From a virus, in IMG/VR virus record IMGVR_UViG_3300028840_001067, positions 1 to 38,839 of that record: a DNA stretch of 38,839 nt, one strand, 5' to 3'. How positions within the stretch are numbered: position 1 is the first letter of the stretch; each line of letters begins with the position of its first letter. A program made the position numbers and the translations under genes. Shown here one piece after another: positions 1 to 12,006 of the stretch. Below the pieces are notes generated by a model. The model did not search any database and had not been told where the DNA came from. It saw only the letters and a list, made by a program, of their open reading frames with translations.

Positions 1-144
1 CAATCAATTCCATACTTAATCTTCCCATTTGTTTTTTAAGGTTAACGTCTCACCTTCAGTTAGTGGTTTAAAATCACCCTGCATCCACGTACAACTCAAC
101 TGGCCCATTGTATACCTAGTGTCGTTAGACCATAGTACAAACCC
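1..144. repeat. Terminal overlap copy 1: identical to 38696-38839 (circular closure or terminal redundancy)
   Basis: Read directly: caatcaattccatacttaatc...catagtacaaaccc occurs at both window ends, 144/144 identical. It spans a gene junction. Confidence 0.95.
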
Positions 145-273
145 ATAACCAGCTTCCTTAAAAAGGACTATAACATTTTCATCAGAGCTTACTGCTACCA
201 GAGGGTAGCCTACAGTCTTAGTATCTTGTTTATTAATGTATTGTTTTGCATTATGTGTGGTTATGATTGTCAT
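16..273 (-). CDS. Hypothetical protein (85 aa from ATG 273; track ORF extends to 303)
   Basis: ATG at 273-271 follows the exonuclease stop by 1 nt (TGAtATG). Same strand and tight packing with neighbours. Its 3' end is repeated at 38711-38839. Confidence 0.6.
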   Translation of the reverse strand: MTIITTHNAKQYINKQDTKTVGYPLVAVSSDENVIVLFKEAGYGFVLWSNDTRYTMGQLSCTWMQGDFKPLTEGETLTLKNKWED

Positions 274-274
274 A

Positions 275-1249
275 TCAGTCTTCACCCCATTTAAATCTGA
301 CATCTTGATACCTGCGTAAGAACAGTAGGTTAGCTGTCTCTACTAACATCTCCTGCCATGTGAGGTGGGTAGTACCGTCCTCTGACATAACACCATCTGG
401 GTACTTACTCTTATATTCCTTGGCTACAAACTTAGCCATGTCATACTCAGTGATGTATTGCTCGATAGCTTTGGTAGCTGTCTTAATACCGTAGCCGCGC
501 TTACCTTTAGTACCTGATAGACCCTTGATGTTGTCTATCCTGTCACCCATTAACATCTGAATGTATAAGTTACGGCACGCCTGTAAGGGAGTGACATACT
601 CTACACCTTTTTTAATGCTACCTAGTCCTAATTGATAGCCGGATATAGTACGTAAGTCCTTATCACCTGAAGCCACGATAACACTACCTTCGTTATCTCT
701 AGCTGCCTGTGCTACGGAGTCATCAGCTTCCATACCTTGACACACCTTAGCTCTGAACCTATCTATCATGAATTGTCTGCACTCATCGTAATAGACTGGC
801 TTCACCATCTCCTTGCGGTTACCCTTGTAAGCTTGGATAGTGGCATCTTCATTACGCCACAAGGTAGAACCCTTAGTTAAGTACCAAGACTGAGGAGAGT
901 TACGGGTAGCATTCTTAATGAGTAGTCGCTTCTGCTTCAGTATCATCTCGCACTTATCGAAATCCTCTATCCAATCTAGATAGTCAAGGTTTACTACCTG
1001 CGCTGCTAGGTGTGGGTGTTTTTTACACCACTTGTTGTATTCTGCCTTACCCTTGCCATGGAATAAAAGTTTACCTCCCTCGCCGTAGGCTATAGGTTCA
1101 TGATGTTCTACAGCAAAGCCTGCTGCATACACAAACATATCCGCATCTACTAGAGTGCGGCACTCCCTCCAAGGGAGGGCGTCACGTGGGGGTACATCAG
1201 ATAGAGGTTGCTCTAAATCATCCATGTAAGGGAGTGGGTTTACTAGCAT
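275..1249 (-). CDS. 5'-3' exonuclease / flap endonuclease (FEN, PIN-like plus H3TH)
   Basis: 324 aa. Acidic motifs GMEADDSVAQAA and SGDKDL are typical of Pol I-type 5' nucleases, followed by an H3TH-like DNIKGLSGTKGKRGYGIKTATKAI. AAGGAG lies 6 nt upstream of the ATG. Confidence 0.85.
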   Translation of the reverse strand: MLVNPLPYMDDLEQPLSDVPPRDALPWRECRTLVDADMFVYAAGFAVEHHEPIAYGEGGKLLFHGKGKAEYNKWCKKHPHLAAQVVNLDYLDWIEDFDKCEMILKQKRLLIKNATRNSPQSWYLTKGSTLWRNEDATIQAYKGNRKEMVKPVYYDECRQFMIDRFRAKVCQGMEADDSVAQAARDNEGSVIVASGDKDLRTISGYQLGLGSIKKGVEYVTPLQACRNLYIQMLMGDRIDNIKGLSGTKGKRGYGIKTATKAIEQYITEYDMAKFVAKEYKSKYPDGVMSEDGTTHLTWQEMLVETANLLFLRRYQDVRFKWGED

Positions 1250-1252
1250 ACT

Positions 1253-1405
1253 CTACTCCTTGGGAAGTATTTCCCACTTACCATCGCTGTTAACAGCATG
1301 GTGTGTATCACTGAGTGATTTCTTTTCTATGAATGCCTTAGCTTTGTCTTCACTGAAGAAGTACTTCGGCTTACCGTCTTGTCCTAATGATTTATCTTTA
1401 GACAT
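1253..1405 (-). CDS. Small hypothetical protein, 50 aa (below ORF-track cutoff)
   Basis: Own translation: MSKDKSLGQDGKPKYFFSEDKAKAFIEKKSLSDTHHAVNSDGKWEILPKE. GAGGGGG lies 6 nt upstream of ATG 1405. The ORF fills an otherwise empty 148-nt gap, and its last codons form the SD of the next gene. Confidence 0.5.
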   Translation of the reverse strand: MSKDKSLGQDGKPKYFFSEDKAKAFIEKKSLSDTHHAVNSDGKWEILPKE

Positions 1406-1814
1406 CGGCTACCCCCTCTTGTAGTACATAGTAGTACTTAGATTTTACATTACACTTACCAGACTTTTGCATTCGTTGTACTACCGTCTGCACTACGTTA
1501 GGTGGTAGTGATGTTAGCTCTACTAGTTCATCTGTGCTAGCCATACCGCGCTCTCTAATGAAGCGCTCTATCTGGTCAGCACGACTTGTGTACGCATGCT
1601 CAGGCTTATGTAGGCTATATTCCCCACAGCCTATACGGTATAGAGCTAGGTTGTGTTGCTGGTTGTGATATACATTCTGAAGTACAGCGCGTGCTACTTC
1701 TATCTCCACATCTAACACTCTAGCTATTAGCCCCGATGTAAATATCACGTCTGGATTACTACGCATAAATGCCAGTAGCGTAGGTACTCTGTTTACGTTA
1801 TATGTCTTACCCAT
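1398..1814 (-). CDS. Hypothetical protein with two winged-helix/HTH-like segments (possible DNA-binding regulator)
   Basis: 138 aa. The helix-turn-helix-like stretches are ...GLIARVLDVEIEVARAVLQNV... and ...STDELVELTSLPPNVVQTVVQRMQKSGK.... Function is inferred only. Confidence 0.6.
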   Translation of the reverse strand: MGKTYNVNRVPTLLAFMRSNPDVIFTSGLIARVLDVEIEVARAVLQNVYHNQQHNLALYRIGCGEYSLHKPEHAYTSRADQIERFIRERGMASTDELVELTSLPPNVVQTVVQRMQKSGKCNVKSKYYYVLQEGVADV

Positions 1815-1815
1815 G

Positions 1816-2013
1816 TTATTCTCCTACTGATTTTAATGCTGCTTCTGGATAAATCTGAACACTACCAATTTCAGTGTTTGACTCAACGCTGTACCCGCGA
1901 GGTGTCAGTGTAGTGCTATAGTAACCAACAACTTTACCTGTCCATGATGAGCCTTTAATCTTTGTAACTTCATCGCCCAACCCCCACGTTGGGTTTTCAA
2001 ATACAACACCCAT
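1816..2013 (-). CDS. dfrB: Type II (R67/DfrB-family) dihydrofolate reductase homologue
   Basis: 65 aa from ATG 2013, with AAGGAG 6 nt upstream (track start 2028 overlaps that SD). [50 protein letters not shown] aligns without gaps to the R67 core [50 protein letters not shown]. About 30/55 residues are identical by eye, including the active-site VQIY. Confidence 0.85.
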
Positions 2014-2083
2014 GCTATTCTCCTTCATCTATCTCTGAACGCCTGACTGTAACCTTTAGGTTGTAGGCATCGTGTTTGTCTCC

Positions 2084-2110
2084 AATAAAAGAACCCCTCA
2101 CAAGGAGGGG
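2084..2110 (-). terminator. Rho-independent terminator (minus strand)
   Basis: The minus strand reads CCCCTC-cttgt-GAGGGG followed by TTCTTTTATT. It starts immediately after the TAG at 2111-2113. Confidence 0.7.
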
Positions 2111-2269
2111 CTACCAAGGTATATCGTCATCGAAGGGGAAGTCCTCATCAGTAACTTCCGGTATCGGTGTACGTATAGTTAGGTCCAGCTTAACTGGTTC
2201 CCATGGTGGAATGTCAGCGGTGCTGGTATCACTCGTCTGCTGCGTCAGAGTAGATTGTTTCGATTCCAT
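2111..2269 (-). CDS. Alternative-frame ORF (52 aa) encoding an SSB-type C-terminal tip; either a separate small protein or the true recoded/frameshifted C-terminus of the SSB-like gene
   Basis: Own translation: MESKQSTLTQQTSDTSTADIPPWEPVKLDLTIRTPIPEVTDEDFPFDDDIPW*. It is in the +1 frame relative to 2229..2942, is open from 2308, and ends 1 nt before the terminator stem. Confidence 0.4.
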   Translation of the reverse strand: MESKQSTLTQQTSDTSTADIPPWEPVKLDLTIRTPIPEVTDEDFPFDDDIPW

Positions 2270-2942
2270 CTTTAACGTAGTTATCTCCCTGTTCGAGAAA
2301 TCGGGCAGTCAGATAATCTAGATACATTAAGTAAATATCCATCTTCTCTGAAGTAGGTGCCTCTAACTTCATCGTGTCAGTCTTGGCTGGTAACTTGATA
2401 GCTTCCTTCTCTAGCATAGCGCCTAGCACTTTGATAGCTTGCTCACGTGCAAAGCCTAGCCCTGCTCGTAAGTCTTTCTCTGCCCAGTTTGTTTCTCCCT
2501 TGGCTGGTGCTTTGGCCCCAGAGCTACCCTTGCTAGGATATGAGTTACCGCCTTTAGTGCTGCCACCCCCATTACCACGAGAGTTGCCGCTGTCAGTAGA
2601 GCGAGAGCTACGAGATCCACGGGAGTTTCCAGCGTCATCATCACCACGACTGTTACCACGGCTACCGTTACGACTACTGCGGTTAGCGCCGCGTGTCTTA
2701 GGTTCTACTAAGTCAGTGATTTCTAGAGAGTCCAGCACCATATTTAGGAACTTTCCATTTTCCTCAGCATCAAAGGTTATAGTACTGCCTTCCCCAAACT
2801 TAGGGGCTTCACTTCCCATACCGAATAAGTCCGTACTATTCTCATTAGTATCTTCCACCTTAACACGATAGAAAGTACCGCCATTACGTGTAGGAGTTGA
2901 TAGAATCTCTAGTACTTTTCCTTCTACAAAAAATGTAGTCAT
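2229..2942 (-). CDS. Single-stranded DNA-binding-like protein (OB-like N-terminus, G/S/R/N-rich linker, helical C-domain)
   Basis: 237 aa, adjacent to the DNA polymerase. N-terminal beta-rich segment MTTFFVEGKVLEILSTPTRNGGTFYRVKVED. Low-complexity GNSRG repeats. Acidic end ...YSDAADE. An SSB tip is encoded just downstream in another frame. Confidence 0.6.
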   Translation of the reverse strand: MTTFFVEGKVLEILSTPTRNGGTFYRVKVEDTNENSTDLFGMGSEAPKFGEGSTITFDAEENGKFLNMVLDSLEITDLVEPKTRGANRSSRNGSRGNSRGDDDAGNSRGSRSSRSTDSGNSRGNGGGSTKGGNSYPSKGSSGAKAPAKGETNWAEKDLRAGLGFAREQAIKVLGAMLEKEAIKLPAKTDTMKLEAPTSEKMDIYLMYLDYLTARFLEQGDNYVKDGIETIYSDAADE

Positions 2943-2943
2943 A

Positions 2944-4941
2944 TTATTTCTCCATTAATGATGAATAATCAACACCTTCCATTCGGATAGGTGGTATTGC
3001 TGTTACTACAATCTCACCCCCATCTATGTCTACAACTTCTGCATCATATTGTGATGGTTGGAAATGTAAGTCACCCCCTCCCCAGTAGTCACCAGCTTGG
3101 TAGCCTACACCGAGAGGTACATTGAACTGTAAGTCATACACTGTGTCTAAGAATTCGTACACCCACCAAAGGAATGTCCACTTACTTATCTCGTATAGTT
3201 CTTCCAGTTCGTCTTCAGGACTCTCCGCTATCACTGAGTCATGCACAGTGTTAACTAAGAAAGTCTGCATTTCTTTACGCTTGATTATGTGCCATGTAGC
3301 AACGAGTGCTATAGGTATAATCTCTGCTGTTGCTAAGTTCTGTACGGGGTAGTTACAGATAGATGGGAAATCTTGACAGTACCCGCTATTAGAGACAGAA
3401 CAATTAGGATAATAGAATGTTATCCCTGTTGCGTGTGTTATCTCCTTGGCACGTAACACCTTAGCCTGCCACTGCTGCTGTGCTTTGGTGATGTCTGCAT
3501 ACTTCTCACGGAAGGCTGCGTAATATGCCATCTGTGAATCAGTACCATACTGCCCGCCATACAGAGGCTTAAACGTGTCAGCCTTAGCTAGTGTACGCCA
3601 GTCACCTCCCTTGGGTGCTGTCTTCTTCTGTGCTGCTACCTCATCCACAGTACAGTTATTGAGAACCGACGCAGTAAACGAATGCACATCGACACCGTCG
3701 ACGATGTCTTGGCATATTCGTACGTCTTGTCCAACGAAACCCGCAACTCTGAATTCGATTTGCGCACCGTCCATTTCAACAACCTTCCACCCCTTATTAC
3801 GTGCCGAGTATAAAGGCTTGTATTTCCTTGGGCTGTTTTGAAGCTGTATACTCTTGGCCTTCGGGTATCCTTTAAACTTGATTTTGATACCACTAGAAGA
3901 CAAGCGGTGTGTAACTGTTTGTGCTTGGTTGAACTGCGCGTAGAATAAACAATCCTCCTTCTCTGTAACTACTCCATAGAAGTAGTCTAGATTTTTAGTT
4001 AAGTCAGCATTCAGTTGAGCGAAAGTTTTCTTTAGTTGTAAGAACTTAGCTTGCTTCTTGTTCTTAGGTGTAAAGGAAAGTATCTCCTCCCCTGTTGGAC
4101 GGTGTTCTACTCCCTTCTTCTTTAGAGGTTTGAACTTGAGTACATCGTAGATAAACTCTTGCATCTGAGGGACAGACCTAGGGTTACGTCCGTCTATCAT
4201 TAGCATTAGTTCAGCTTCTACATCCGCCATATTCCTAGATGCCTGCTCATACTCCTTAACGACCTTCTCTTTATCTAGGTGTACACCACGTAGTTCTATA
4301 TCAGCTAACACTGGTGACAGTAAGCACCTGTTATAGAAGAGATGTAGTACATCACGCTCTACCATCTTATCCCGTAAGACTTTCCAAAGATTACGTGTCT
4401 GAAATATGTCAGACTTATTACGCTTCTCTAACAGAGAGCGAGGGATGTCACGTGGGCTAACACCACACCTCATTAGCTTATCTACTAGTGGGTCTTTAGT
4501 TACACCTAAGTGTTCCTTAGATAGTGTACCTAGTGCAAGTGCTCCCTTCTTACCAGCCTTTAAGTTACCAGTCAGTACATACTCAGCTAACATAGTGTCT
4601 GCTAGTAGGATACATGATGGGTCAAGGCCAGCACGGATAAGCCATTTGATATCGAACTTACCATTATGTGCCACAACAAAGTCAGCTTCATACATCTCTT
4701 GTATCAACTCAGCCATGTCGTGTATGCCGCCATAGATAAACTTCTCATCACCTCTACCACCATGACCTCGCACCCATGCAGCAGATACTAAATCATTCTG
4801 CTCCCATGTAGCGTCAGGGCTACGTTCATCACCGTTGGTGTCTGTCTCTAAGTCGAGTACTAAGTAGTTATCTGATAAGTAGATGTTAGGGTCTAGGTTA
4901 AGAAGGAAGTCAGGTAAGTAATCATAGTAATCCTTGCTCAT
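2944..4941 (-). CDS. Family A (T7-like) DNA polymerase with 3'-5' exonuclease domain
   Basis: 665 aa. Exo motifs LVLDLETD and VAHNGKFDIKWL. Pol motif A VVEMDGAQIEFRVAG, motif B RTLAKADTFKPLYGG, motif C VNTVHDSVIAE. Confidence 0.92.
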   Translation of the reverse strand: MSKDYYDYLPDFLLNLDPNIYLSDNYLVLDLETDTNGDERSPDATWEQNDLVSAAWVRGHGGRGDEKFIYGGIHDMAELIQEMYEADFVVAHNGKFDIKWLIRAGLDPSCILLADTMLAEYVLTGNLKAGKKGALALGTLSKEHLGVTKDPLVDKLMRCGVSPRDIPRSLLEKRNKSDIFQTRNLWKVLRDKMVERDVLHLFYNRCLLSPVLADIELRGVHLDKEKVVKEYEQASRNMADVEAELMLMIDGRNPRSVPQMQEFIYDVLKFKPLKKKGVEHRPTGEEILSFTPKNKKQAKFLQLKKTFAQLNADLTKNLDYFYGVVTEKEDCLFYAQFNQAQTVTHRLSSSGIKIKFKGYPKAKSIQLQNSPRKYKPLYSARNKGWKVVEMDGAQIEFRVAGFVGQDVRICQDIVDGVDVHSFTASVLNNCTVDEVAAQKKTAPKGGDWRTLAKADTFKPLYGGQYGTDSQMAYYAAFREKYADITKAQQQWQAKVLRAKEITHATGITFYYPNCSVSNSGYCQDFPSICNYPVQNLATAEIIPIALVATWHIIKRKEMQTFLVNTVHDSVIAESPEDELEELYEISKWTFLWWVYEFLDTVYDLQFNVPLGVGYQAGDYWGGGDLHFQPSQYDAEVVDIDGGEIVVTAIPPIRMEGVDYSSLMEK

Positions 4942-11506: not shown

Positions 11507-11740
11507 CTATTCTTTGAAATCTCTAAGAGCAGTTTGTACATCCCGCAATTCAGATGCGCTCCCAGCTTCTACTATATCCCCAGCTAGGTTACGTATGAAG
11601 TAGCGATAAAACCCGTATGTACGAGGTTCCTTGTAAAACACATGACCTTTGGGGAGTATTACACATTGGCCGCCGCCTGAACGTAAGCCGTTTATAGTAG
11701 TGACTGTGAAACCGTATATCTGTTTCGTTTTGAATTCCAT
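11507..11740 (-). CDS. Hypothetical early protein
   Basis: 77 aa, near the 5' end of the minus-strand arm. Confidence 0.6.
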   Translation of the reverse strand: MEFKTKQIYGFTVTTINGLRSGGGQCVILPKGHVFYKEPRTYGFYRYFIRNLAGDIVEAGSASELRDVQTALRDFKE

Positions 11741-11877
11741 AATGTAATCCCTTAGTTAATTACCTTCATGACTACCTCTCAAGTGTAAGAGGTAGCTAGT
11801 AGATAACTAGTCTACAAAATAAGACTTGCTGATTGTCTTGTTAGTGCCTCATCATTAAACACCTTAATAAAAGATGC

Positions 11878-12006
11878 TTAATGATATACAGTATTCCCAG
11901 TTATTACGTGGTCAACCCGCTGTATTCGGTCCCGCTTTTCCCTCATGGCTTCTAACCTATCCCGACTGAGGAGAGCGTTCTTGCTCTTTGCCGTTGATTC
12001 AATCAT
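11878..12006 (-). CDS. Small basic protein, 42 aa; candidate first gene of the early arm (below ORF-track cutoff)
   Basis: Own translation: MIESTAKSKNALLSRDRLEAMREKRDRIQRVDHVITGNTVYH. A perfect AGGAGG lies 7 nt upstream of ATG 12006. Confidence 0.5.
   Translation of the reverse strand: MIESTAKSKNALLSRDRLEAMREKRDRIQRVDHVITGNTVYH

Follow-up and report, generated by a model that had tools for sequence, protein, structure and literature searches.

Bacterial SSB recruits partner proteins via its C-terminal tip, and this tip is a hub for many host genome-maintenance proteins. To our knowledge, well-supported +1 programmed frameshifts on bacterial ribosomes are few, with prfB and some phage structural genes as cases, and +1 sites that lie inside a gene are notoriously hard to recognise. 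In prfB (RF2) the slippery codon lies beside a stop codon, in CUU_UGA with an upstream Shine-Dalgarno sequence, as it does in CCC_UGA of the tsh genes of the Listeria phages PSA, A118 and A500; phage PSA is an example of the use of +1 shifts by phages (PMC5009743). It is established that bacterial ribosomes are prone to shift +1 at UUU_Ynn, and sites of the UUU_Y type include the error site of E. coli argI, that of the proposed YopN-TyeA hybrid of Yersinia, and the PA-X cassette of influenza A, UCC_UUU_CGU (PMC5009743). Inference of such a site from sequence can fail, because the YopN-TyeA hybrid product was still present after a silent UUU-to-UUC change (PMC3789692). A search for published frameshifting in Vibrio phage VpV262, in Zobellviridae or in phage SSB found none; Hardies et al. 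2003, which describes the VpV262 genome, and Schwartz & Curran 1997 were outside this search.

The window studied here is the whole 38,839-nucleotide stretch of IMG/VR record IMGVR_UViG_3300028840_001067, and the phage that carries it is a marine phage. Directly downstream of a PolA DNA polymerase gene (2944..4941) lies an SSB-like gene (Table 1), whose 237-aa product ends in ...YSDAADE at TGA 2231-2229. The +1 frame of this gene is open from 2308 to the TAG at 2113-2111 and reads LPDFSNREITTLKMESKQSTLTQQTSDTSTADIPPWEPVKLDLTIRTPIPEVTDEDFPFDDDIPW; it ends in an SSB-type tip, DFPFDDDIPW (2143-2114), has a second tip-like motif, DIPPW (2215-2201), upstream of it, and contains an ATG at 2269 from which a 52-aa ORF is listed (2111..2269). 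The tip peptide has the sequence DEDFPFDDDIPW. The two reading frames with their stops, the tip, the second motif and the 52-aa ORF had been given in a preliminary description, and every coordinate was confirmed on re-examination. Where the two frames overlap, helix 2 ends and the acidic tail follows in the zero frame (EQGDNYVKDGIETIYSDAADE), and the +1 frame reads as a Ser/Thr/Lys/Gln-rich linker (SNREITTLKMESKQSTLTQQTS). The preliminary description was also correct in placing a terminator after the +1-frame TAG rather than after the SSB stop: a terminator-like hairpin, AGCCCCTC-CTTGT-GAGGGGTT followed by CTTTTATT, lies directly 3' of this TAG, its sequence is identical 3' of the tip ORF in three related loci (L005, L008 and L015), and no hairpin of this kind was found between the SSB stop and the TAG. 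Its fold energy of -15.7 kcal/mol is unremarkable (z-score -1.0). The transcription unit is closed by the hairpin past the +1 ORF rather than at the zero-frame stop. A much looser tip pattern, searched in six frames over the entire window, matched only this ORF end and one unrelated position, and with so few matches chance composition does not account for the motif. The window holds no tRNA genes able to modulate decoding.

Table 1 Features of the SSB-like gene and its +1 frame in the window.
Feature	Coordinates	Strand	Basis or remark
Zero-frame SSB-like ORF	2229..2942	-	ORF list, AlphaFold2 model, Foldseek, homologues
Proposed +1 shift cassette CGA_UUU_CUC, Arg214-Phe215-Leu216	2295..2303	-	Comparative codon conservation
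Overlap read in both frames	2232..2294	-	+1 frame stop-free in 15/15 loci
+1-frame extension past the zero-frame stop, DTSTADIPPWEPVKLDLTIRTPIPEVTDEDFPFDDDIPW	2114..2231	-	Translation, selection, remote homologues
TAG stop of the +1 frame	2111..2113	-	Terminates the predicted trans-frame product of 276 aa (215 + 61)
Intrinsic-terminator-like hairpin and T run	2092..2112	-	Sequence, fold energy

The AlphaFold2 model of the 237-aa protein consists of an N-terminal OB-like beta-barrel (aa 3-77, pLDDT around 80), a disordered linker rich in Arg, Gly, Ser and Asn (aa 85-150, pLDDT below 50), and a helical hairpin (helices 153-178 and 197-236) that precedes the acidic end. In Foldseek the model came closest to OB folds, namely those of Rim1, bacterial SSB and RPA, but the E-values were weak (about 1e-3) and the target-normalised TM-scores ranged over 0.5-0.7. 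With a putative OB fold at the N-terminus, then a long linker of low complexity and an acidic Ile-Pro-aromatic end, the predicted architecture resembles that of bacterial SSB and its tip ...DFDDDIPF. The phage gene differs in its extra helical hairpin, in a tip of the D-F-D-D-D-I-P-F type that is present in the +1 frame only and needs a change of frame, and in the outcome of Pfam, PHROGs, NCBIfam and PDB-sequence searches, which assigned no family, bacterial SSB (PF00436) included, to the SSB-like protein, its extensions or the predicted 276-aa product. The acidic tail of phage T7 gp2.5 was also considered for comparison; the SSB-like gene is the neighbour of the DNA polymerase gene, and the replication module is T7-like.

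Homology searches with the SSB-like protein retrieved 12 close and 430 remote homologues. The close homologues all end at the same place (225-237 aa; in-frame fusion in 0/12), and the identical 237-aa protein occurs on three contigs of different source. In remote homologues (P0030, P0036, P0040, P0065, P0102, P0115, P0121 and P0139) a DFDDDIPF-type tip is in frame, as a tip is in the Vibrio phages 1.209.O and 1.015.O, and the tip can thus be assigned to the SSB-like protein family. The Zobellviridae 1.209.O and 1.015.O, together with P0036, P0065 and other metagenomic relatives, are members of the same family by profile comparison (E-values down to about 1e-20). The in-frame homologues share with the window the domain order and one or two terminal tip motifs, whereas their tip is in the zero frame and the homologous position reads TAT GTT rather than TTT CTY; their linker begins a few residues past the homologous Arg-Phe position. 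From the in-frame tips of these remote relatives it follows that the ancestor of the clade to which the window belongs underwent a frameshift mutation.

This clade comprises 15 loci: the window, two Vibrio phages that are in culture (VpV262 and 1.077.O) and a dozen metagenomic contigs (among them L005, L007, L008, L009, L011-L015, L017 and L020). The same +1 arrangement with an SSB-type tip is found in all 15, down to 31% protein identity, and the offset is shared by the Sanger-era sequence of VpV262 and by the Nahant phage 1.077.O. The alignment of orthologues that the preliminary description had proposed puts the tip in the +1 frame in these 15 loci and in frame in remote homologues. Searches of viral contigs with the single SSB-like protein or with the extension alignment gave no match, and a search with the clade alignment returned only duplicates of loci already obtained in other ways (VpV262 and the P0006 contig); alignments of the broader family were too divergent to yield search patterns. 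As judged from codon comparison, the +1 ORF is under purifying selection, with dN/dS of 0.06-0.39 and synonymous sites often saturated, and with indels of whole codons from right after the zero-frame stop; the extension itself is kept in L008, L009 and L015 with dN/dS of 0.06-0.23 and whole-codon indels only. Among relatives, folded domains are gained or lost inside the extension and the terminal tip is kept. Sequence comparison thus shows the extension to be genuinely coding; it is always contiguous with the SSB ORF, lacks a start signal of its own and co-occurs with UUU_C. The +1 frame is moreover free of stops over the 11-30 codons before the zero-frame stop in 15/15 loci; under synonymous-codon shuffling the probability of an open frame is 0.06-0.78 per locus, which sums to a log10 of -8.7, or -5.7 when the site codons are fixed, sums that overstate significance since the loci are related and perhaps amount to 6-7 effectively independent lineages. 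In the overlap synonymous divergence (pS) is lowered to 0.49, compared with 0.61-0.71 elsewhere.

The position at which the frame could change is suggested by a short conserved cassette. UUU_C lies at 2300-2297, 22 codons upstream of the zero-frame stop; TTT followed by C is found in every locus with the +1 arrangement (15/15), and on inspection of the sequences this is the sole +1 re-pairing-competent site common to all overlaps. TTC is the preferred Phe codon in the clade genomes, where TTT makes up 12-47% of Phe codons, and the invariance of TTT against this bias has a summed log10 P of -8.8, inflated by kinship among the loci; the window has a TTT share of 47%, and the TTT signal there is comparative only. 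The rare codon CGA precedes UUU_C in 9 of 11 Arg codons, ACT GCC CGA TTT CTT is the strongest run of rare-codon synonymous conservation, and pS at the cassette falls to 0.28, against the same 0.61-0.71. Other unusually conserved codon columns are Gly-186 (GGC, 11/11) and Phe-187 (TTT, 7/10). Two loci bear on the site. In P0015 the Leu after Phe is replaced by Arg, and the prediction held: the site reads TTT_CGT and the open +1 frame ends in a tip. L021, which groups with 1.077.O and L020 (41-46% identity) and is nested in the clade, serves as a natural negative control, as it reads TTC_TTC_CTG, its +1 frame is closed, and its tip ORF is in the -1 frame.

The only features flanking the UUU are the conserved rare CGA at the E-site position and CUU, CUC or CGU in the A site. 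No Shine-Dalgarno-like sequence was found upstream of UUU_C, and no credible conserved RNA structure was found around or downstream of it (RNAalifold consensus -1.4 kcal/mol). As no stimulator was found, the efficiency of the shift is probably low. An SD-like sequence, CAAGGAGA, is present 6-13 nt downstream of UUU_C, with the rare GGA used in 6/10; it was discarded as a start signal, being 15 nt from ATG 2269, and as a prfB-type stimulator, being downstream of the site. AAA_G (window and L005) and GGG_G (L008 and L009) were rejected as +1 slip sites because they are not conserved, and transcriptional slippage because no homopolymer of more than 3-4 nt lies at or near the site.

We propose, with a probability of roughly 0.6, that the gene is decoded with programmed +1 ribosomal frameshifting, most probably at UUU_C, to give a 237-aa tip-less and a 276-aa tip-bearing isoform. 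Standard decoding would yield the 237-aa protein with its OB fold, linker, helical hairpin and acidic tail, and no tip. A fraction of ribosomes would shift +1 within CGA_UUU_CUC: the P-site tRNA-Phe, first paired with UUU (2300-2298), would re-pair on UUC (2299-2297) and decoding would resume with UCG (2296-2294). The shifted ribosomes would then read the Ser/Thr/Lys/Gln-rich linker past the zero-frame stop, and their product would end in ...DIPPW...DFPFDDDIPW, i.e. with a tip of the bacterial SSB type. Since Phe215 lies in the middle of the predicted helix 197-236, a shift at this residue would truncate the helix. We infer both ribosomal slippage as the mechanism and UUU_C as its exact site from the comparative pattern.

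Such a shift would resemble those at known UUU_Y sites, as a P-site tRNA-Phe on UUU would re-pair with a UUC or UUU that overlaps it, without the need for a heptameric tandem site, and the outcome would be a C-terminally different or extended product; the L020 cassette UUC_UUU_CGU is close to UCC_UUU_CGU of influenza PA-X. Unlike these precedents, the proposed site lies within a replication gene of a phage and has been kept clade-wide, and the YopN-TyeA case differs in that the site proposed there was not confirmed by mutagenesis (PMC3789692). With prfB and the tsh genes the locus would share +1 recoding and a longer protein from two overlapping ORFs; however, those sites need a Shine-Dalgarno sequence or a pseudoknot, whereas the stop context of the phage SSB is variable and non-slippery, and its likely site is internal. 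As with tau and gamma of dnaX, there would be two replisome isoforms with a common N-terminal body and a differing C-terminal partner-binding module (PMC5009743). The dnaX shift is -1 and uses A_AAA_AAG together with a Shine-Dalgarno sequence and a stem-loop, the shifted product in E. coli is the shorter one, and the proteins are unrelated, so that this likeness is an analogy only.

A shift of +1 (or -2), or hopping, at the zero-frame stop itself (GAG_UGA_U, 2234-2228) is the strongest competing explanation and a rather unlikely one. It would also give 276 aa (237 + 39), with the helical hairpin and acidic tail retained and a junction of ...IYSDAADE followed by D/TSTADIPPWEPVK. It would account well for a zero-frame protein that is conserved to its very end, as helix 2 would be kept intact, and for the conserved +1 sequence DIPPWEP, which begins about 5 codons past the stop; the last sense codon is always GAN (Asp or Glu), and acidic C-terminal residues reduce termination efficiency in E. 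coli. However, family members without recoding end in acidic residues too, and the stop (TGA, TAA or TAG), the base after it (T, G or A) and the last codon (GAG, GAC or GAA) all vary. Re-pairing by +1 or -2 is impossible for tRNA-Glu and tRNA-Asp alike, neither a Shine-Dalgarno-like element nor a conserved structure is present, and a hop from GAG to a GAR further on would miss out the conserved DIPPW. A shift here also leaves the openness of the +1 frame ahead of the stop and the invariant TTT_C unexplained. The preliminary description had raised +1 recoding into two isoforms with GAG-TGA-T as an example of the site; comparison supports the recoding, and it is the site that did not stand.

Somewhat less likely again is that the +1 ORF encodes a separate small protein, translated from ATG 2269 (52 aa) or by reinitiation, as a free mimic of the SSB tip that would compete for or recruit host SSB partners. 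VpV262 and others carry an additional, separate 85-aa mini-SSB with a tip, and the tip ORF of L021, about 100 nt past the SSB stop and in a different frame, has a GTG as its possible start; L021 illustrates that an ORF of its own can carry the tip module. The extension of 1.077.O is annotated as its own gene in GenBank. The ATG proposed in the preliminary description, however, has an equivalent in three loci only (window, L005 and L008), and the GGAG of the window is not at a working distance from it, 15 nt upstream. Across the 15-locus clade no ATG, GTG or TTG with a Shine-Dalgarno sequence is conserved ahead of the +1 ORF, and neither L015, whose +1 frame offers TTG codons only, nor L007, with no start codon at all before the conserved block, has a start with such a sequence ahead of that block. 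Unlike an untranslated spacer, the stretch from the stop to the conserved block stays open with whole-codon indels, the offset is +1 in 15/15 loci, and in remote homologues the tip is an in-frame part of this same protein. Gene callers place differing starts on the +1 ORF or call no gene. Their choice of start is arbitrary, and public records mis-annotate the gene, the VpV262 extension (AY095314.2, roughly 11624-11909) being un-annotated and that of 1.077.O a separate hypothetical protein.

That the +1 ORF is what is left of an in-frame tail of the ancestor, no longer translated and in decay, as the in-frame tips of remote relatives might suggest, is highly improbable given strong purifying selection with dN/dS far below 1 and saturated synonymous sites, a frame that stays open in all loci down to 31% identity, and a terminal tip that persists while folded domains come and go. 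A one-base assembly or sequencing error in 2232-2308 that split a single in-frame ORF, first considered from the appearance of this one window, is refuted by the comparative data, with the identical protein on three contigs, a common end in all 12 close homologues and the same offset in 14 other independently sequenced relatives, two of them cultured phages.

The overall picture, which we hold to be slightly better than an even proposition, is that a marine Zobellviridae-like clade makes two forms of SSB by an internal +1 shift at UUU_C and places the tip, in many relatives together with a small beta-barrel, on the minority form only, with the efficiency of the shift setting the number of tips. 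The mixture of tip-less and tip-bearing subunits may thereby determine how many partner-binding tips each SSB assembly displays to host or phage replication and repair proteins. If true, no programmed frameshift would have been described in an SSB gene before, and the case would be among very few conserved, stop-independent +1 shifts by bacterial ribosomes; a clade-wide, stop-independent UUU_C for which nature supplies a loss-of-site control would make a clean model of the internal +1 class. It points to translational recoding, in place of a separate gene, as a means by which a phage can dose the SSB C-terminal tip.

At ~39 kb, the window covers almost all of a podophage genome; among cultured phages, Vibrio phage VpV262, of the family Zobellviridae, is the closest to it. 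Re-reading the ORFs confirmed all the coordinates that the preliminary description had assigned to the two frames of the SSB-like gene. No terminator-like hairpin follows the zero-frame stop in the window, and a six-frame scan with a loose tip pattern matched the end of the +1 ORF and one unrelated ORF end, leaving the +1 extension with the phage's only tip motif. The antisense ORF has similar counterparts in VpV262 and L009 (155 aa) but is unlikely to be a gene; repetitive codon composition most likely accounts for it. The R67-type (type II) dihydrofolate reductase gene is also present in locus L015, and DNA similar to it is found in parts of Vibrio phages F89 g1 and 1.030.O and of Sinorhizobium phage phiM9.

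Coordinates of features in the window and in related phage loci (L-numbers)
Locus	Feature	Coordinates	Strand	Remarks
Window	PolA-type DNA polymerase gene	2944..4941		665 aa; directly upstream of SSB-like gene
Window	SSB-like zero-frame ORF	2229..2942	-	237 aa; C-terminus ...IETIYSDAADE; stop TGA 2231-2229
Window	Open +1 frame	2308 to TAG 2113-2111	-	C-terminus ...TSTADIPPWEPVKLDLTIRTPIPEVTDEDFPFDDDIPW
Window	Proposed cassette CGA_UUU_CUC	2303-2301, 2300-2298, 2297-2295	-	decoding would resume at UCG 2296-2294
Window	Rare GGA segment	2292..2285	-	four codons past proposed shift site
Window	Terminator-like hairpin with T run	2112..2092	-	directly 3' of +1-frame TAG
Window	R67-type dihydrofolate reductase ORF	1816..2028	-	70 aa; PF06442, E = 1.4e-21
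Window	Antisense ORF	2374..2871	+	165 aa; opposite Arg/Gly/Ser-rich linker
VpV262 (L001)	Mini-SSB gene (phrog_18154)	3261..3518		85 aa
VpV262 (L001)	Long-form extension	3554..3838		includes the conserved block of ~60 aa before the tip
L009 (L002)	Cys/His-rich ORF (CxxC...HHEDY...CAACH)	3330..3728		132 aa
L012	PolA DNA polymerase gene	1..2404		called as 469 + 144 + 195 aa
L021	Tip ORF	1872..2387		-1 frame relative to SSB-like gene, ~100 nt past its stop; ends ...ECWFDDDIPF; possible GTG start at 2031

The SSB-like protein found no family match in Pfam, PHROG, NCBIfam or PDB sequences, and is not a formal member of the Pfam SSB family. In an AlphaFold2 model built with a 12-sequence alignment, aa 3-77 form a beta-barrel at the N-terminus (pLDDT ~80), aa 85-150, rich in Arg, Gly, Ser and Asn, are disordered, and helices 153-178 and 197-236 pair as a hairpin; Foldseek placed the OB folds of Rim1, bacterial SSBs and RPA nearest to the barrel, weakly, with E-values of ~1e-3. 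A profile search returned 430 remote homologues with acidic tails, several of which have an in-frame tip of the canonical SSB kind (...EEFDDQIPF, ...DFDDDIPF, ...DFDDNMPF, ...DDIPW), some as two tandem motifs, and in two annotated Zobellviridae the in-frame end is ...DDDIPFE (1.209.O) or ...DDDIPFEQ (1.015.O). It is therefore fair to call the protein SSB-like in function, and the tip is native to the family. In a sizeable subgroup of homologues (P0017, P0023, P0026, P0027, P0049, P0078, P0103 and others), ...DDDIP is followed by E, Q or S in place of the aromatic residue; like the ends of 1.209.O and 1.015.O, these may represent tip variants or another oddity of the C-terminus.

All 12 close database homologues (44-100% identity) end at one and the same alignment column, with lengths of 225-237 aa. 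DNA was retrieved for VpV262, Vibrio phage 1.077.O, L005, L007, L008, L009, L011, L012, L013, L014, L015, L017, L020 and L021. On alignment, the tip-coding frame is conserved: in 15 loci (the window plus 14 relatives) +1 reading passes the zero-frame stop without interruption and finishes with an SSB tip, L021 being the sole exception, and the tip lies in frame only in the remote homologues. Past the stop, pairwise comparisons give dN/dS values of 0.06-0.39, often with saturation at synonymous sites, and extensions differ in length by whole codons only, even next to the stop. The loci compared share no ATG, GTG or TTG at a fixed position in the +1 ORF, nor does any start codon there have a Shine-Dalgarno sequence at working distance, which explains why gene callers placed scattered starts or called no gene. 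The L015 +1 frame offers only two TTG codons without Shine-Dalgarno, L007 has nothing start-like ahead of its conserved block, and in public records the VpV262 extension is left un-annotated and that of 1.077.O is entered as a hypothetical gene in its own right. When the long extension was used as query, its homologues were just seven gene-call fragments of 82-119 aa, with no free-standing family among them. Judged from the sequences, the +1 ORF is a coding region that ribosomes very probably enter from upstream.

The independent 52-aa protein from ATG 2269 that had been suggested is unlikely, as this ATG occurs in three loci only and its GGAG, 15 nt upstream, is too distant. An independent tip protein is nevertheless kept alive at a low level by L021, where the tip module can stand alone. 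This locus clusters with 1.077.O and L020 (41-46% identity); its site reads TTC_TTC_CTG and its +1 frame is closed, as predicted from +1 frameshifting at UUU_C, and its tip ORF has the look of a module that secondarily became a gene of its own. The same prediction held for the homologue P0015, with Arg for Leu after the Phe: TTC_TTT_CGT, and a +1 frame open to ...CPFDDDIPF.

The comparison supports the recoding raised in the preliminary description, but not its example site, GAG-TGA-T. A shift at the zero-frame stop itself would also give 276 aa, the same length as a shift at UUU_C. The stop context varies (last codon GAG, GAC or GAA; stop TGA, TAA or TAG; next base T, G or A), and tRNA-Glu and tRNA-Asp cannot re-pair in the shifted frame. 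For UUU_C, TTT with C as the next base is present at 11-30 codons before the stop in every locus with the +1 arrangement (next codon CTT in 12, CTC in two, CGT in one), and from there to the stop the +1 frame lacks stops throughout. TTC is the preferred Phe codon of these genomes, TTT making up 12-47%. The string ACT GCC CGA TTT CTT is the gene's strongest synonymous-conservation cluster using rare codons (observed versus expected: CGA, 9/11 and 1.4; TTT, 12/13 and 3.3; CTT, 11/12 and 1.7), some other codon columns also being unusually conserved, and synonymous divergence is 0.28 at the site versus 0.61-0.71 upstream and 0.49 in the overlap. Summed log10 probabilities are -8.8 for TTT at the site (14 of the loci) and, under synonymous-codon shuffling, -8.7 for the open +1 frame (-5.7 with site codons fixed; P = 0.06-0.78 per locus), values that overstate significance because the loci are related; with ~6-7 effectively independent lineages, the signal remains clear.

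UUU_Ynn is documented as especially +1-prone on bacterial ribosomes, and the influenza PA-X cassette is UCC_UUU_CGU (PMC5009743); the textbook UUU site of YopN-TyeA was not upheld by mutagenesis (PMC3789692). The stimulator search found no Shine-Dalgarno-like sequence upstream of the site and no conserved structure, and shift efficiency may therefore be low. Past the site, 6/10 loci (1.4 expected) encode Gly by the rare GGA, which creates a Shine-Dalgarno-like CAAGGAGA or CAGGGAGA; its distance from ATG 2269 is too great, and a prfB-type stimulator would have to lie on the other side of the site. Phe215 lies inside the predicted helix 197-236, and in the in-frame relatives homology ends and a linker starts within a few residues of its position.

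Extensions take a short form, ~35-39 codons past the stop (window, L008, L009, L015), or long forms of ~95-107 codons, in which a small domain is inserted ahead of the tip. The window and L005 (73% identity) have identical zero-frame ends yet a short and a long extension, respectively, and the extension is therefore modular. The assembly indel first considered is thus ruled out by the same-position stops, the +1 arrangement shared by 15 loci and this modularity. The conserved block of VpV262, L005, L007 and L011-L014 was modelled (m295bff1d1520) as a small five-stranded beta-barrel (pLDDT 64) with only weak SH3/KOW/Tudor-like resemblance and no significant PDB match on structure comparison (best E = 0.046). 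The inserts come in at least three unrelated-looking versions (VpV262, 1.077.O/L020 and L017 types). A separate mini-SSB gene, whose product ends in DFDDDIPF or a close variant, lies directly 3' of the +1 tip ORF in VpV262, L011, L013 and L014, which therefore encode two tip-bearing products; it is absent from the window, with its single tip motif. Among relatives, L009 alone has the Cys/His-rich ORF, HNH-like by eye, inserted right after the tip ORF. The split PolA gene of L012, with PF00476 on both outer parts, suggests interruption by an inserted element or intein-like sequence.

In the literature searched, which did not take in the VpV262 genome paper, no description of recoding was found for VpV262, Zobellviridae or any phage SSB gene. 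The mechanism class and site type are already known; a +1 shift gating an SSB tip and conserved over a phage clade, as proposed here, appears new. In bacteria, many proteins of replication and repair dock on the C-terminal tip of SSB. We propose that a slip on UUU would yield a tip-bearing trans-frame product of 215 + 61 = 276 aa. This and the tip-less 237-aa isoform would have the helical hairpin in common, plausibly an oligomerisation element, so that recoding would determine how many tips an SSB assembly carries, in a logic analogous to that of dnaX tau/gamma.
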